Positions 2,539 through 13,828 of a stretch of DNA of 17,573 nucleotides are shown one piece after another. The stretch lies in the IMG/VR virus record IMGVR_UViG_2617270950_000003. One strand, 5' to 3'. Each line of letters opens with the position of its first letter. Position 1 is the stretch's first letter. Source of the DNA: a virus. Lineage: Duplodnaviria > Heunggongvirae > Uroviricota > Caudoviricetes. Under the pieces are notes generated by a model, which had not been told where the DNA came from, did not search any database, and saw only the letters and a list, made by a program, of their open reading frames with translations. A program made the position numbers and the translations under genes.

Positions 2539-2540
2539 GT

Positions 2541-2568
2541 CCATAAGAAAGCCCCTCCGGAGAGGGGC
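2541..2568 (-). terminator. intrinsic terminator candidate (minus orientation) downstream of the tRNA cluster
   Basis: Hairpin gcccctc-cgga-gaggggc; on the minus strand it is followed by UUUCUUAU. Together with 2509-2538 this forms a bidirectional terminator pair in the tRNA-nanS intergenic region. Confidence 0.5.
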
Positions 2569-2805
2569 TGGAGAGTGGCGCTATGTGCCATTGCATGGTG
2601 CCGGGTGCCTCCCGGTGAATTCAGTACCAGCACCTGAATCCGCGATTATCCCATATACCTACTCGCTGATTGCCCCTCCGCACAGGGGGATTCACCATGC
2701 CAGTTTCTTTTAACAAACTCCCCGCAAAACAGACAACTGTCAACCGTCTGAATTGTGAGACATTTAAAAAAAAGGCCCGCAAAAGCGAGCCAGGGAAAAT
2801 AAGTG

Positions 2806-2882
2806 TGGCGCGTTGTACTGGATTCGAACCAGTGACCGATTGCTTAGAAGGCAATTGCTCTGTCCGGCTGAGCTAACAACGC
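2806..2882 (-). tRNA. argO: tRNA-Arg, anticodon UCU (argO-like)
   Basis: Manual fold of the reverse complement: GCGTTGT acceptor, GCTC/GAGC D-stem, anticodon loop CTTCTAA (TCT), GGTTCGAATCC T-loop, encoded CCA. 77 nt. Confidence 0.8.
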
Positions 2883-2895
2883 AGGGTACAGATAA

Positions 2896-2972
2896 TGGAC
2901 CGCCATCGGGGACTTGAACCCCGCGCAGCCAGCTTCGAAGGCTGGCGCTCTATCCTGATGAGCTAATGGCGG
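2896..2972 (-). tRNA. argN: tRNA-Arg, anticodon read as UCG (argN-like)
   Basis: Manual fold: acceptor CCGCCAT/ATGGCGG, D-stem GCTC/GAGC, anticodon stem CCAGC/GCTGG with loop CTTCGAA (TCG), T-arm CGGGG-TTCAAGT-CCCCG, encoded CCA. Anticodon assignment should be confirmed with tRNAscan-SE. Confidence 0.7.
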
Positions 2973-2979
2973 TATGTGA

Positions 2980-3055
2980 TGGTGGCCCTTGCTGGATTTG
3001 AACCAGCGACCTGGCGATTATGAGTCGCTCGCTCTCACCACTGAGCTAAAGGGCC
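2980..3055 (-). tRNA. ileZ: tRNA-Ile2-like, gene anticodon CAT (lysidine-modified type, ileZ-like)
   Basis: Reverse complement GGCCCTTTAGCTCAGTGGTGAGAGCGAGCGACTCATAATCGCCAGGTCGCTGGTTCAAATCCAGCAAGGGCCACCA closely resembles E. coli tRNA-Ile2 (ileX) as I recall it. Anticodon loop CTCATAA. 76 nt with CCA. Confidence 0.75.
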
Positions 3056-8706: not shown

Positions 8707-9632
8707 TCAGAATGTCAATTTGTTACTGGATTTACCGAATTTGTCAGACATGGCTCCCAGGCCAGCCAGGACATCGACCTGTCGCTGTCGCCCACCTCCG
8801 TGAGCGGCTGGCTGTTGCCAGTAATCTTCGAAGTGACGATCGGGTCCAAAGAACGTCGCAGCCTGCTTCACGAACTGTGTGCCGGTATTTCCTGTAGCAC
8901 GTACCCAGGCGGCATACCGCTTCACGCCATCAAGCATGGTCTCCGGTTTTATTCCCTCCCTGATACGGGCTTTCCAGGCTTTGAAGGCTGCTGACTTGGA
9001 ATTGCCACCAGCACGTTTGGGATATTCCTGCCAGGCCTGTTCAAATTCCGGTGAATATTCCTGTCTGGCAGAACGCGCTGGTGCAGACGCGTCAGCGGAT
9101 GCGCCAATATCTTGCGGTTCATGTTTTGAATTTACTGGTGGTTCATGTTTTAAACCTTGTGGATCTGGAGTCAGATTCTGAAGGGTCAAACGCGTATTTT
9201 TGCCAGAATCTGAAGGGTCAAACACGCCTGAACATACAGATTCTGACGGTTCAGATTTTGAAGGTTCAGAATCTGAAGGGTCACGTAATACTGAAAGTCT
9301 GCGCTGCTGTTTCAGTTCTGCAACCTTATCCCGCTCAGTTCTGGCAAGCTGCTCAAGCCGATCAGCATTCAGATGATAAAGATTGGACGTATTACGGTTA
9401 CCTTTGCGGCGTGACTGACGCGTCAGCCAGCCATCAGCCTCCAGTTCGGAGATTGCCGTTCTGACTGTACTTTCTCCCAATCCAAGCTGTCGACATATGG
9501 TTTCAACACCCGGGTAGCACACCCGTCATCATTCGAATAATCAGCCAGGCGCGCCATAATCATCAGTTTTGCACCTTTGACGCCATATGCTGCGCATGCA
9601 TCCCAGACATTACCGAGGATCTTGCTACTCAT
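8707..9632 (-). pseudogene. replication initiator (lambda O / P22 gp18-like, N-terminal HTH), frame interrupted by an apparent 1-nt deletion
   Basis: N-terminal ORF 9423..9632 (MSSKILGNVWDACAAYGVKGAKLMIMARLADYSNDDG) and ORF 8707..9522 (CYPGVETICRQLGLGESTVRTAISELEADGWL...) join into one protein if a G is added in the GGG run at about 9520-9526. Strong SD (GGGAGGTG) before 9632. Iterons lie inside the gene, as in lambda O. Confidence 0.7.
9117..9283. repeat. origin-like iteron array inside the O-like gene
   Basis: Two copies of ggttcatgtttt(g/a)aa, then direct repeats cagattctgaagggtcaaac, cagaatctgaagggtcaaac, cagattctgacggttcag, attttgaaggttcag and aatctgaagggtcac. Confidence 0.6.
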
Positions 9633-9853
9633 ACGACACCTCCCAGACGCTTAAACATTTTTCCGGACTGAAACGCCACCAGCGGGTAACTCAGGGTATA
9701 AGTACGCCCCTGCACCTGGCAGACAACCTTCTGACTTTCTGCATTGACCAGGCAAACCCGCAGAACGAGGCCGTTGCTGGTGGTAAACCACTGCCCCACT
9801 CGGGGGCAACGGTTGTATCGGTGATACAGGAAATTAACGATGTGGCGGATCAT
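9629..9853 (-). CDS. hypothetical small protein (74 aa)
   Basis: ATGA-type overlap with the O-like start and with the upstream small ORF, suggesting translational coupling. No family recognised. Confidence 0.4.
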   Translation of the reverse strand: MIRHIVNFLYHRYNRCPRVGQWFTTSNGLVLRVCLVNAESQKVVCQVQGRTYTLSYPLVAFQSGKMFKRLGGVV

Positions 9854-10044
9854 GGACGCACCTCCGCCGTAGTTACGTATTTAACCGGGCTACCTTTCAT
9901 TGAGATGGTTTCACACATCTCTGCCGCTTTCAGTTCCGCTGTTTTTCTGGATTTATAGCGACGGTGCCAGACAGATACATCCGTGCGAACTGATACATCG
10001 TTTCTGTATTCCGTAGTGGAGATGATGATTTCGTAACTAATCAT
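9850..10044 (-). CDS. hypothetical small protein (64 aa)
   Basis: Overlap coupling on both sides (10041-10044 and 9850-9853). No family recognised. Confidence 0.4.
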   Translation of the reverse strand: MISYEIIISTTEYRNDVSVRTDVSVWHRRYKSRKTAELKAAEMCETISMKGSPVKYVTTAEVRP

Positions 10045-10892
10045 GGGCGAACCTCCTTGTCAGAACCATTCAGCCTGGAATCAACAAGTGCAGCGCCAAA
10101 AACAGCATCACCAACACGGTCGTACAGTTTGCTAGCCAGCGGAGATTCAACGGCCTTAAGCATTGGATAAAGCTGGCTTGTCCAGATTTGATGGATTTCA
10201 CGCAAATGCAGGTATACGCCTCTGGCGTTTCGTGCGACAGCTGACATATCAGACGTATCGGCACCTGATAAACTCTTCTCCATCAGGTTAAAGGCGTTGA
10301 TGTATGCCTCTTTGAACCGGGCAGCACGTTTACCAGTGAAGCCCATGGCAAGGAACGCGAAGCCATCGCGGGTGATTTGATAGCAAGGTAGTTTGCGGCC
10401 TGATGCGTCGGTGTATTCACTTAACACAAAATTGTGTTCAGTAAATTCAGCGGAACATTCGAGGTTTCTAATTCTATCTAAAACCCGCTCATGCCGTTTA
10501 GTAAAGTAATTAGCTACTGCAAGAGATGTGGTGACAACGCGACCATTGATAATCGTGATTTCAGGGTGAGATTGGGTTGGGAGAGTAGTCATGGTGACAG
10601 CCCCTATGTTGAATTCAATGAACTCACCACCAAGGCTTTCCACGACCATATAGGTGGTGAGACGTACAGGGGTGGAAATACCGGTCAACATAGAACCCGG
10701 CCCAACCGAAATTGGCCCTGCACGCCACACCATAATTTGGGCGTAACGATGCTCATGACACGAAAAAACCGCATGAGCGCGGTTGTGCTCTATATTGAAT
10801 TTCGGGTTTCCACGCCCGGCACCCGCTTTATAAGGTGCAGAGACAGTGTAACGTCCCGAAATTGCAGAATCAATATGCTGGTGGCGGATCAT
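10041..10892 (-). CDS. Rha-family phage regulatory protein (paralog A); Rha core from internal Met at 10592, preceded by a Gly/Pro/Ser-rich extension of about 100 aa
   Basis: Rha-domain blocks IINGRVVTTSLAVANYFTKRHERVLDRIRNL and YQITRDGFAFLAMGFTGKRAARFKEAYINAFN. Whether translation starts at 10892 or 10592 is unresolved. Confidence 0.7.
   Translation of the reverse strand: MIRHQHIDSAISGRYTVSAPYKAGAGRGNPKFNIEHNRAHAVFSCHEHRYAQIMVWRAGPISVGPGSMLTGISTPVRLTTYMVVESLGGEFIEFNIGAVTMTTLPTQSHPEITIINGRVVTTSLAVANYFTKRHERVLDRIRNLECSAEFTEHNFVLSEYTDASGRKLPCYQITRDGFAFLAMGFTGKRAARFKEAYINAFNLMEKSLSGADTSDMSAVARNARGVYLHLREIHQIWTSQLYPMLKAVESPLASKLYDRVGDAVFGAALVDSRLNGSDKEVRP
10815..10876. repeat. 62-bp block near-identical to 11471-11532 (copy 1)
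   Basis: cccggcacccgctttataaggtgcagagacagtgtaacgtcccgaaattgcagaatcaatat; 61 of 62 identities with copy 2 while flanking sequence is diverged. Confidence 0.85.
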
Positions 10893-11551
10893 AGGTGCAC
10901 CTCCCGTTGATTACGACGGAACGCGGAGTGACCCTGGACGGTTTCAGCCTCATGGAATGCTTCAATACAGCTCTCGTAGTACCGCATTGTGCGCAGACTT
11001 AACCCAAGCTGAAGCATCATCAGACCATCAAGGGTGATGTAATAACCACGCAGGGAGTCACCGTAGATGTGATAAGTACCCGGTATGAAATTGCGGGTAA
11101 AAAACTCGCGTGAGCAGTTCAGATACTCGATTTTGTCGACGATGTTCTGGTGCATGCGCTTAAAGTGGCAGGCAACATGCAGGGAGAAAATAACGGCCTT
11201 GCCGTTGACAACTTCAATTTTGAGGAATGGGGAAGTTGGGACTGTAGCCATGATGGCAGCCTCCGTATGCAATGGATAACTTCCACCACCGGAGCTGCGA
11301 AACTCACTGGTGGCAGACTGAACAGGGTTCGCAGTACCGGCGCATACGGAAACCGGCGAGCCTTTCGGCTCCCCTGCCCAGCCCACCATAATTCTGGCGT
11401 GCGTGAGCGCGGACGATAAAAAAGACGCTGGCGCGTCGTATATCGCCGTATGCAATTCCGGGCTGCGACCCCCGGCACCCGCTTTATAAGGTGCGGAGAC
11501 AGTGTAACGTCCCGAAATTGCAGAATCAATATTTGGTCTTGAAATGATCAT
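10889..11551 (-). CDS. Rha-family phage regulatory protein (paralog B, more diverged), with a similar N-terminal extension
   Basis: Core from MATVPTSPFLKIEVVNGKAVIFSLHVACHFKRMHQNIVDKIEYL...YYITLDGLMMLQLGLS aligns by eye with paralog A. N-terminal IDSAISGRYTVSAPYKAGAG is identical to paralog A. ATGA overlap with paralog A. Confidence 0.6.
   Translation of the reverse strand: MIISRPNIDSAISGRYTVSAPYKAGAGGRSPELHTAIYDAPASFLSSALTHARIMVGWAGEPKGSPVSVCAGTANPVQSATSEFRSSGGGSYPLHTEAAIMATVPTSPFLKIEVVNGKAVIFSLHVACHFKRMHQNIVDKIEYLNCSREFFTRNFIPGTYHIYGDSLRGYYITLDGLMMLQLGLSLRTMRYYESCIEAFHEAETVQGHSAFRRNQREVHL
11471..11532. repeat. 62-bp block near-identical to 10815-10876 (copy 2)
   Basis: Direct comparison of the two segments; one mismatch. 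Confidence 0.85.
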
Positions 11552-11636
11552 ATAGCTGCTGATATCTTTAGAACTGTTCTTGGATGTTTCGGAGCCGTTT
11601 TATGCGAAACAGCTCCCCGTTATTGATGTTGAGTGA

Positions 11637-11660
11637 GCCGGGTTACTCCCGGCTTTTTTT
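11637..11660 (+). terminator. plus-orientation intrinsic terminator overlapping the stop codon of the minus-strand Rha gene
   Basis: Hairpin gccggg-ttact-cccggc followed by T7. In the minus orientation the hairpin has no U-tract, so termination is plus-specific. Confidence 0.55.
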
Positions 11661-12373
11661 CATCGCTGCCAACCAATAACCTGAAATAACCCCATTTTCG
11701 GGTGATACCAGCGAGTCCCTCGCGGTTCTGCTTCCTCCATAACCCGATAAAAAGCAGCCATAAACGGTTCCACAGCAACAATTGCGCGACGTGACAACAA
11801 TCCGTCCGGCGTCATGAACTCATGTGTGTCTGTAGGAATTTGATAGGCGTTCACCAGATTGCGGCATTTATCATCTGACAAACCGGTTTTTGCTTTCAGT
11901 TGGCGATATCCGGCATAGCCCTCACGAATAGTGCCCTTTTTAATTTGCTCGACTGTTTCAGCAACGTGGCTGACTTTTTCTTCCACCTGAGTGATCCGTT
12001 TCTGTTGGCGAACGGCTTCAAGAGCCATCGCGGCAACCATTTCGATTTCGCTCATTGGCTTACGGATCTGTTCTTCCAGTTCGCGCCAGCGATCTACCAG
12101 GCGAGCTGTGAATTCAGGACAGAGCTGTGCGACGACAATGATGCTGTCGCGCTTACCTTGTTCGCCTTCGAAGATGTAAGCACCTACATTTCGTTTTAAT
12201 CCTAAGTTGTTGATTATTTCGAAATTCGCCATTGGCGCACTTCGAATAATCCCCTTATCCATGAGCCTTTCAATGCTGCGCTTAACATCTTTGTGTTGGC
12301 TGCCCACCAACTCTGCGATTTCAAGGCTGGTCATGGATGCTTTGCCGTTAAAAATTGCGGTGTTCACTGCCAT
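11660..12373 (-). CDS. Rha-family / antirepressor-like phage regulatory protein (paralog C, N-terminal Rha domain)
   Basis: 237 aa from ATG at 12373 with AAGGAG SD. N-terminus MAVNTAIFNGKASMTSLEIAELVGSQHKDVKRSIERL matches the Rha pattern. Confidence 0.7.
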   Translation of the reverse strand: MAVNTAIFNGKASMTSLEIAELVGSQHKDVKRSIERLMDKGIIRSAPMANFEIINNLGLKRNVGAYIFEGEQGKRDSIIVVAQLCPEFTARLVDRWRELEEQIRKPMSEIEMVAAMALEAVRQQKRITQVEEKVSHVAETVEQIKKGTIREGYAGYRQLKAKTGLSDDKCRNLVNAYQIPTDTHEFMTPDGLLSRRAIVAVEPFMAAFYRVMEEAEPRGTRWYHPKMGLFQVIGWQR

Positions 12374-12486
12374 CTCCTTACGGATAAATTCTTTTAAGAT
12401 TCCGCACATTCGTACTTATTGGTGCCGAACCTTCCTTCAGTTATCCTTTTGATCCCTATAAACAAAAGAACCAAAGGAGGTTCGAC

Positions 12487-13171: not shown

Positions 13172-13828
13172 ATGAAGTCTTTAGGTGAACGTCTCATCAA
13201 CGCACGGCAAAAAGCTGGGTTAACACAAGATGCGTTGGCTAAAAAAGCTGGGATCACCAGAGTTGCAATCAGTAAAGCCGAGCAAGGCCTTACAAAAAGT
13301 TTCAACGGTGACACCCTTTTTAAAGTTGCAGCTGCACTGCGGTGTTCACCGCAGTGGATTCAGAACGGAGATGAAAAAGATAAGCATTGGGAAAATAATG
13401 TTAAGAGCTGCCCACAGAGAGACACAGCACACTCTTACCCTGTAATTAACTGGGTTCAGGCAGGATTATTCGCAACTTCTGGTGATGACTACAACATGTA
13501 TGATCAGGATAATTGGAGGCATTCTGTAAAATACGCTGGTGAGAGGGGGTTCTGGCTGGAAGTGCACGGAGACTCAATGACTTCGCCCGTAGGAATAACA
13601 TTTCCTGAAGGAATGTCGATCCTTGTCAACCCAGATAAAGAAGTTTTTTCAGGGTGTTACGTCATCGCCAGAAAAAAATCTACCAATGAAGCAACATTCA
13701 AAAAATATATTTCTGACATGGGAAAGGCGTTTCTAAAGCCCCTTAATCCACAATATCCAATCATAGAAATGGACAATGATTGCGAAATAGTAGGTGTTGT
13801 GGTTGATGCCAGGTGGGATATTTTCTGA
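13172..13828 (+). CDS. cI: CI-like prophage repressor (N-terminal HTH, C-terminal S24/LexA-type autopeptidase)
   Basis: 218 aa from ATG at 13172. HTH LTQDALAKKAGITRVAISKAEQG, candidate Ala-Gly cleavage site (VQAGLF), Ser nucleophile in GDSM, and downstream Lys residues. Confidence 0.85.
   Translation: MKSLGERLINARQKAGLTQDALAKKAGITRVAISKAEQGLTKSFNGDTLFKVAAALRCSPQWIQNGDEKDKHWENNVKSCPQRDTAHSYPVINWVQAGLFATSGDDYNMYDQDNWRHSVKYAGERGFWLEVHGDSMTSPVGITFPEGMSILVNPDKEVFSGCYVIARKKSTNEATFKKYISDMGKAFLKPLNPQYPIIEMDNDCEIVGVVVDARWDIF

Follow-up and report, generated by a model that had tools for sequence, protein, structure and literature searches.

In the 17,573-nucleotide (nt) stretch of DNA from the Caudoviricetes record IMGVR_UViG_2617270950_000003 (the whole of which is hereafter called the window), two adjacent genes of the Rha family, both on the minus strand (10041-10892, 283 amino acids (aa), and 10889-11551, 220 aa), raise the question of what occupies the long stretch that precedes each Rha domain. 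The initial annotation reported that the two open reading frames (ORFs) are joined by an ATGA overlap; that they share a nearly identical 62-base-pair (bp) block within otherwise strongly diverged sequences; that each carries, at the same relative position, a minus-strand hairpin followed by a T-run; and that the Rha domain lies behind an atypical N-terminal extension. It offered two explanations: either these are real N-terminal domains homogenised by gene conversion or they are structured RNA leaders and the proteins begin at an internal methionine (Met). The underlying observations were all reproduced. The overlap is present, the block is identical in 61 of 62 positions, the two modules differ far more in their remaining sequence (protein identity of the Rha cores, 37%), and the hairpins with their T-runs (10767-10784 and 11424-11437) differ in stem sequence. 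In the Pfam matches, about 120 aa of either long ORF precede the Rha domain; in either ORF, codon 101 is the internal Met.

Our answer, to which we assign a probability of about 0.8, is that the leaders are two tandem RNA immunity cassettes of the P4/P1 type, located in the early operon of an Escherichia coli lambdoid prophage and traversed by long, Eta-like frames. We refer to the module with the 220-aa ORF as M2 and to that with the 283-aa ORF as M1; when compared in register, they are recognisably similar over about 300 nt and diverge after that. The answer draws on the identity and structure of the RNAs, the three-way co-variation of two recognition elements, a and b, which differ between the two cassettes, the onset of coding selection at the internal Met, and the maintenance of the open long frame.

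IsrK-like and C4 RNAs in both leaders

Related cassettes were collected with a pattern derived from the first IsrK hairpin, which fixes 17 of the first 24 nt of IsrK. The search yielded 120 viral contigs with 102 distinct cassettes, to which P4, Gifsy-1 and one Stx2 phage record (LC710660) were added for comparison. Rfam and Pfam scans were judged at the curated gathering thresholds.

Each leader contains an IsrK-like RNA followed by a C4 antisense RNA, all four above threshold, and both C4 matches span the full-length Rfam model (Table 1). The IsrK-like RNA is the equivalent of P4 seqA and of P1 c4-a1b1 (pairing elements a1/b1), and both cassettes show the traits of such a leader, namely, the conserved geometry of a predicted promoter, an intrinsic terminator, which accounts for the hairpin and T-run noticed initially, and copies of a1 and b1 that co-vary with C4. 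Unlike P1, the window leader fits isrK, and the Rfam c4-a1b1 model (RF03163), which does match Gifsy-1, remains below threshold (23.8 against 46.7 bits).

The initial annotation had suggested aligning homologous loci to distinguish synonymous from structure-preserving substitutions and to look for covariation, and the outcome favours RNA on both counts. Substitutions in the leader are spread evenly over the codon positions (see below), and changes in base pairs are compensatory. In an alignment of 64 cassettes, 96.7% of the cells are paired under the Rfam-derived structure, with compensatory changes in 17 pairs, a result that was reached in none of 500 shuffles; in slid controls, 37-45% were paired. 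The closing helix of C4 is 99.9% paired, with 8 of its 17 pairs altered on both sides, and all five pairs of hairpin a are compensatory.

Table 1. Features of the two cassettes in window coordinates
Feature	Position	Strand	Details
M2 long (Eta-like) ORF	10889..11551	-	220 aa; RefSeq name 'ash family protein'
M2 62-bp block	11471..11532	-	Promoter and first IsrK hairpin
M2 internal promoter (predicted)	11501..11529	-	-35 TTGATT 11524-11529; -10 TACACT 11501-11506; comparative geometry
M2 IsrK-like RNA	11418..11494	-	Rfam RF01394, 57.0 bits (gathering threshold 50)
M2 IsrK hairpin 1	11475-11494	-
M2 IsrK hairpin 2	11459-11474	-	a1 TCGCAG at 11463-11468
M2 b1	11446-11454	-	TGCATACGG
M2 IsrK intrinsic terminator	11418-11437	-	Hairpin and U6 of the initial annotation
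M2 C4 antisense RNA	11306..11393	-	Rfam RF01695, 80.4 bits (threshold 45)
M2 C4 internal AUG	11387-11389	-	Position of the Gifsy-1 orf45 start; in frame with Rha
M2 C4 hairpin a	11358-11372	-	Inside the long closing stem
M2 C4 specificity loop b2	11341-11352	-	UUUCCGUAUGCG
M2 C4 a2	11328-11334	-	CUGCGAA
M2 downstream targets	11260..11301	-	a' TTCGCAG 11295-11301; b' TGCATACGGAGG 11260-11271
M2 short gene	10889..11251	-	120-aa Rha-type protein (MATVPT...), from internal Met
M1 long (Eta-like) ORF	10041..10892	-	283 aa
M1 62-bp block	10815..10876	-
M1 internal promoter (predicted)	10845..10873	-	-35 TTGATT 10868-10873; -10 TACACT 10845-10850; comparative geometry
M1 IsrK-like RNA	10762..10838	-	Rfam RF01394, 61.6 bits (gathering threshold 50)
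M1 a1	10807-10813	-	GTGGAAA
M1 b1	10787-10798	-	TCAATATAGAGC
M1 IsrK terminator	10763-10784	-	Hairpin and U6 of the initial annotation
M1 C4 antisense RNA	10650..10737	-	Rfam RF01695, 74.8 bits (threshold 45)
M1 C4 internal AUG	10731-10733	-
M1 C4 loop b2	10685-10696	-	GUUCUAUGUUGA
M1 C4 a2	10672-10678	-	UUUCCAC
M1 downstream targets	10601..10643	-	a' GTGGAAA 10637-10643; b' TCAACATAGGGG 10601-10612
M1 short gene	10041..10592	-	183-aa Rha-family protein (MTTLPTQ...), from internal Met

Matched recognition elements and cassette specificity

The loops of C4 vary together with their targets. The b2 loop, of which 34 variants were found, is complementary both to the b1 site of its own IsrK (nt 41-49) and to its own b' site, which lies directly upstream of the gene start and runs into the Shine-Dalgarno (SD) sequence. 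Complementary runs average 9.3 nt for the own IsrK site against 5.9 nt in cross-comparisons, and 10.9 against 6.5 nt for the SD site. The second element, a2, a single-stranded stretch after hairpin b, comes in 15 variants, each perfectly complementary over about 7 nt to a1 in the loop of IsrK hairpin 2 and to a' just downstream of C4 (means of 6.9 and 7.1 nt for the own sites, 4.4 and 4.9 nt for cross sites).

Both window cassettes have the b2-b'/SD and the a2-a' complementarity. In M2, b' contains the SD sequence GGAGG of the short gene in the layout TGCATACGGAGG-N8-ATG; in M1, b' overlaps the SD in the layout TCAACATAGGGG-N8-ATG. The b2-b' duplex has a predicted energy of -16.7 kcal/mol in M2 and -12.1 kcal/mol in M1. 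M1 and M2 differ in both the a and the b elements, and the predicted loop-target duplexes are stronger within a cassette (-12 to -17 kcal/mol) than between the cassettes (-3 to -8 kcal/mol). The two cassettes thus look orthogonal, in the manner of the heteroimmune phages P1 and P7, and are predicted to have different specificities without cross-pairing. A search of the window for further C4 targets (runs of at least 9 nt against either b2 loop, with G-U pairs allowed) returned many scattered, uninformative matches.

Coding selection begins at the internal Met

Where protein-level selection begins was assessed from substitutions by codon position in cassettes whose downstream gene is homologous to that of M2 or M1. 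In the leader, the counts at positions 1, 2 and 3 are flat (56/59/49 for the M2 type and 24/30/26 for the M1 type), and after the internal Met the third position dominates (22/23/64, p=1e-7, and 21/20/66, p=4e-9, respectively). Since no third-position bias is seen before the internal Met, the Rha proteins under protein-level selection are those of 120 aa and 183 aa. Read from this codon, the Rha domain assumes its usual N-terminal place, and the 120-aa length of the M2 short gene recurs in 15 other cassettes. Judged by these comparisons, the internal Met is the real Rha start. The M1 protein is a clear member of the family (PF09669 Phage_pRha, 105.4 bits against 29.9; TIGR02681, 100 against 45.95), and the M2 core matches that of M1 with E=2e-22.

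Thus, the proposal of structured RNA leaders with proteins starting at the internal Met was essentially right; the Rfam isrK and C4 matches, the covariation, the co-variation with the SD site and the codon bias from the internal Met all point to it. The either/or framing in which it was put was too sharp. The RNA leader stands, yet the long frame is free of stops in all 61 cassettes that share the promoter of the window, and that of M1 has an SD sequence and an ATGA start.

Comparison with P4, P1/P7 and Gifsy-1

The closest parallel is satellite phage P4, in which isrK (60.8 bits) and C4 (74.9 bits) lie within one long ORF, eta (214 aa), in the same order of elements as in the window. The P4 promoter PLE (TTGCCT, an 18-nt spacer, TATAGT, then 6 nt) shares its geometry with the window promoters; a1/b1, a2/b2 and a'/b' are positioned as in the window, b' again covering the SD of a short in-frame gene; and the SD-start region, GGAGGCTGCCATCATGGCTAC, is the same in M2. 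The short gene is kil, beginning MATTLTPSHPEF. The start of eta, upstream of PLE, overlaps the stop of vis (ATGA), a likeness to the M1 start at 10892. In P4, transcripts from PLE are quickly terminated via CI/seqA interactions, and Kil synthesis requires read-through; full-length Eta comes only from an upstream promoter, and its translation prevents termination (PMC10111431, citing Forti et al. 1999). The differences are that the window element belongs to the early operon of a lambdoid prophage instead of a satellite, that its short product is a Rha-domain protein instead of Kil, that two tandem cassettes of different specificity are present, and that the M2 long start is uncoupled from an upstream gene. 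In the P4 leader, moreover, IsrK and C4 lie about 33 nt further apart.

In several P4-like satellite loci (L014, 4564-4820(-), L019, L032, L056 and others), we observed an SD-linked gene of 77 aa (MANRKQQRAY...) off the leader register. The ORF in the leader register remains open for about 300 nt past the start of this gene, so that the two frames overlap; the gene may correspond to the Icd-like proteins that are annotated beside ash family proteins in E. coli.

The layout of a1/b1, a2/b2 and a'/b' in the window follows the immI logic of P1 and the seqA/seqB/seqC logic of P4. The immI operon (c4-icd-ant) of P1/P7 shares with the window a C4-family antisense RNA derived from the leader of its own target operon, two recognition elements, a target over the ribosome-binding site and an antirepressor-type product. 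In P1, the a1/b1, a2/b2 and a'/b' complementarities have been described (PMC8198154), and the specificity of the heteroimmune pair P1 and P7 is set by the loop sequence (Citron & Schuster 1990, as summarised in PMC8198154 and PMC7313666). Unlike in P1, where icd is translated first and ant is coupled to it, in the window the Rha gene itself bears b'. The P1 operon promoter is under the control of the C1 repressor; in the window cassettes, no operator was identified.

In Gifsy-1 (isrK-orf45 (STnc1160)-anrP), matches to IsrK and C4 are likewise followed by an antirepressor-like gene, and the promoter geometry is that of the window. The loop of C4 (STnc1160; 1294-1434 of the fetched Gifsy-1 locus, L124) is complementary to ATCACCGGAGG at the anrP SD. 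The sections consulted of the Gifsy-1 paper centre on the pairing of IsrK with orf45, and we found no discussion in them of direct occlusion of the anrP SD by a C4-like RNA (PMC4825925). They describe that IsrK ends at its own hairpin and read-through yields mRNA, and that IsrK supplied in trans raises anrP translation more than 100-fold (PMC4825925). Hfq binding and trans activation of a downstream gene by IsrK are known only from Gifsy-1. An AUG at leader nt 106-107 is common to Gifsy-1 and the window cassettes. In Gifsy-1, it starts orf45, which is read in another frame and whose stop overlaps the anrP start (AUGA), whereas in the window the equivalent AUG is in frame with Rha and the long ORF, making a third, intermediate product possible. 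Another difference is that the Gifsy-1 cassette is single.

The long frame as a probable pass-through frame

Among the 61 cassettes with the window promoter, the long frame has no stop in the leader of any, against 47/61 and 61/61 with stops in the other two frames, each of which has stops at 9-15 different sites, most of them variable. The leaders are 241, 244 or 247 nt long, so that the differences are multiples of 3. Of 20 P4-like cassettes, 19 are open in this register, and in 25 cassettes the open frame extends 360 nt further upstream, to an ATG with an SD sequence. The M1 long start (ATG 10890-10892) is preceded by GGAGG and overlaps the M2 stop; the M2 long start (ATG 11549-11551), located upstream of the internal promoter, is isolated. 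By analogy with eta/kil of P4, the long frame is probably a pass-through frame that is translated from upstream transcripts.

The strongest competing explanation is that the leaders are purely non-coding, the long ORFs are untranslated annotation artefacts, and conservation of the RNA incidentally keeps the frame open. It agrees with the lack of codon-position bias in the leader, with the Rfam matches and covariation, and with the Gifsy-1 arrangement and the M2 start discussed below; furthermore, GenBank record LC710660 already annotates isrK, C4 and a coding sequence from the corresponding Met, that is, only the non-coding RNAs and the short coding sequence. Against it stand the distribution of stops among the three frames (about 8e-7 in a rough binomial calculation with 36 assumed distinct stop positions), the leader lengths differing by multiples of 3, the SD and ATGA overlap of the M1 start, the frequent continuation of the frame far upstream into a larger ORF, and the report that the equivalent frame in P4, eta, is translated and functionally important (PMC10111431). 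On balance, we regard this explanation as unlikely.

The 62-bp block and the Ash domain

The block consists of a -35 element (TTGATT), a 17-nt spacer, a -10 element (TACACT), 6 nt, and then IsrK nt 1-24, that is, hairpin 1. The same arrangement, TTGnnn, a spacer of 17-18 nt and TAnnnT, with the -10 element ending exactly 6 nt before IsrK nt 1, is found in 11 unrelated upstream sequences (9 classes from the fetched cassettes, Gifsy-1 PisrK and P4 PLE). This comparative geometry is strong evidence of a promoter with its transcription start at IsrK nt 1, promoter activity itself being predicted.

In line with a suggestion in the initial annotation, the block was searched for elsewhere; the window contains only the two copies, with none expected in 200 shuffles. 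Their near-identity is real; it is not peculiar to these two paralogs, since 1854 pairs of related cassettes of different specificity average 58.2/62 identical positions (about 94%), and 23% of the pairs reach at least 61/62. Outside the block, the leaders in the same comparison are about 75% identical. Because cassettes of different specificity share the block to this extent, and because it coincides with the promoter and IsrK hairpin 1, no paralog-specific gene conversion is required, and we rejected it as the source of the 62-bp identity. Recombination within the cassette family is still likely, as is evident from the reassortment of the a and b determinants into 47 combinations.

Both long ORFs score above the threshold of 26 bits for the Pfam domain PF10554 Phage_ASH (32.9 and 60.1 bits, aa 15-111 in each), and this stretch corresponds exactly to IsrK through C4, up to the start of the short gene. 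When protein-level selection was sought by codon position in this stretch, none was seen. The quantitative evidence thus suggests that the 'Ash domain' is a translated shadow of the two RNAs, with a frame that is kept open without selection on the peptide. That real Ash domains are fused to Rha, with gene conversion between the paralogs maintaining their similarity and the RNA matches being secondary, accords with the above-threshold Pfam matches, the RefSeq annotation of the long proteins, the open frame and the identity of the two copies even in the variable bases -6 to -1, but is very improbable given the lack of amino-acid-level constraint in the leader, the third-position bias only after the internal Met, the compensatory base pairs and three-way complementary switches, each of the latter changing several codons together, the promoter and intrinsic terminator inside the 'domain', the exact correspondence of the Pfam match with the RNAs, and the conservation of the block in the cassettes of many phages.

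A model of the cassette and the evidence that counts against it

We return to the interpretation of the leaders as P4/P1-type immunity cassettes with Eta-like frames. By analogy with the three known systems, in a lysogen, the internal promoters would fire constitutively, and most transcripts would end at the IsrK terminator. Read-through transcripts would be processed into C4, a small RNA acting in trans, which would pair with b' and a', occlude the SD, block Rha translation and promote termination. This lock would keep off the Rha or antirepressor-type proteins together with the ATGA-coupled small ORFs and replication genes downstream. The short IsrK RNA, which bears the same target sequences, might titrate C4 or remodel the mRNA, turning the cassette on. 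The long ORF would be translated only from transcripts started upstream, at pR or in the preceding cassette via the ATGA coupling, and ribosomes in the long frame would melt the RNA structures of the leader, overriding the lock.

Several points weigh against this interpretation. Promoter activity, C4 processing and the direction of the IsrK effect are taken over from P1, P4 and Gifsy-1, and the Gifsy-1 cassette, which follows antQ, has no long frame over its promoter. A scan of the window for consensus promoters (cut-off 9/12) missed the internal promoters, which are 8/12 matches. The frame is shifted and interrupted by stops ahead of the gene start in four cassettes that share the promoter, so that the open frame is common, not obligatory. 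The M2 long ATG (11551) lacks a recognisable SD, which makes translation of the M2 long frame uncertain. The M2 Rha domain falls just under the Pfam cut-off (28.0 against 29.9 bits). The related cassettes are phylogenetically non-independent, and the conservation of the block from +1 to +24 is partly by construction, 17 of these 24 nt being set by the retrieval pattern.

Tandem cassettes were found in 9 of the 116 fetched loci, and in the 8 arrays with an identifiable b2 loop, the cassettes within each array differ in specificity. One contig (L028, IMGVR_UViG_2671181028_000005, 9652-11209) contains three tandem cassettes spaced by exactly 656 nt, with three different b2 loops; two of these specificities are the same as those in the window. 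In another locus (L115), two partial IsrK starts 238 nt apart (8752 and 8990) come without a recognisable C4 loop, and the region looks rearranged or decayed.

A broader and more tentative idea, which we consider possible although less probable than its negation, is that tandem arrays of two or three orthogonal C4/IsrK cassettes are serial RNA locks in lambdoid early operons, that the approximately 47 a/b combinations form an immunity code shared by prophages and satellites, and that the Ash frame is open only for ribosome crossing. Each cassette would then silence its own Rha-type regulator and stop read-through into the replication genes, and de-repression of the upstream cassette or of pR would be relayed by ribosomes entering the next pass-through frame at the ATGA junction.

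Genomic context and annotation of the locus

Among the genes of the window, a lambdoid prophage, are those for a CI-like repressor of the LexA family (13172-13828), a helicase, a helicase loader and Q, along with a cro-like gene and a third Rha gene. The cassette operon is the early rightward operon of the prophage, on the minus strand, between the cro/Rha region and the replication genes. Just upstream of the cassettes, the third Rha-domain gene (11660-12409(-); Pfam, 34.3 bits, domain at aa 26-113) is preceded by no isrK/C4 leader and has nearly no similarity to the two other Rha cores (E=0.006).

Some match to the region was detected in 1314 of 5426 complete E. coli genomes, about a quarter, and most of the two-cassette arrangement in 91. 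At the same locus of E. coli SCU-387 (99.9% identity), RefSeq annotates the 220-aa 'ash family protein' and the 283-aa 'Rha family' protein and no RNA genes; WP_023151474.1 carries the name 'ash family protein'. A paper on the regulatory region of Stx phages lists the Ash domain without an assigned function and is silent on the RNAs (PMC8951638).

Several other features were observed around the cassettes. A joint, GGAGGTGCNNCCATGATCCGCCAC, recurs at three successive gene boundaries (9842-9865, 10033-10056 and 10881-10904, minus strand) with 75-100% identity; it comprises an SD and an ATGA stop/start overlap and may be a module-boundary or recombination joint. The ORF at 9629-9853 starts with MIRH, like the M1 long ORF. 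On the plus strand, 11539-11664 contains a promoter-like sequence (TTGAAA, an 18-nt spacer and TATCTT, with an upstream TG), followed by a strong terminator (11635-11655, with T8) that immediately adjoins the stop of the Rha gene lacking a leader. The segment 11572-11664 folds with -30.7 kcal/mol (z=-3.67) and has no Rfam match; its position and orientation resemble those of the lambda oop antisense RNA. An STnc100 small RNA (139 bits) lies within 2539-3055 on the minus strand, directly downstream of tRNA genes at 2809-2882, 2899-2972 and 2983-3055. Stx-like lambdoid prophages typically have STnc100 and tRNAs arranged in this way past Q.

Implications for Stx-like prophages

The C4 and isrK families, the eta/kil design of P4 and the antirepressor class of products (P1 ant, Gifsy-1 anrP) are already known, and current understanding is not overturned. 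The paradigm of P4, P1 and Gifsy-1 is extended to another genomic context, and there may be modest novelty in a cassette fused to Rha genes in a lambdoid early operon, in tandem orthogonal arrays, and in the Ash domain as an RNA shadow. In practical terms, recognition of the cassettes corrects the start codons of the Rha genes. The cassettes point to likely RNA-controlled switches of the antirepressor type beside the replication genes of Stx-like prophages. The 34 b and 15 a co-varying variants constitute a natural library of orthogonal RNA repressor-target pairs, and the tandem arrays of different specificity suggest layered control of induction.

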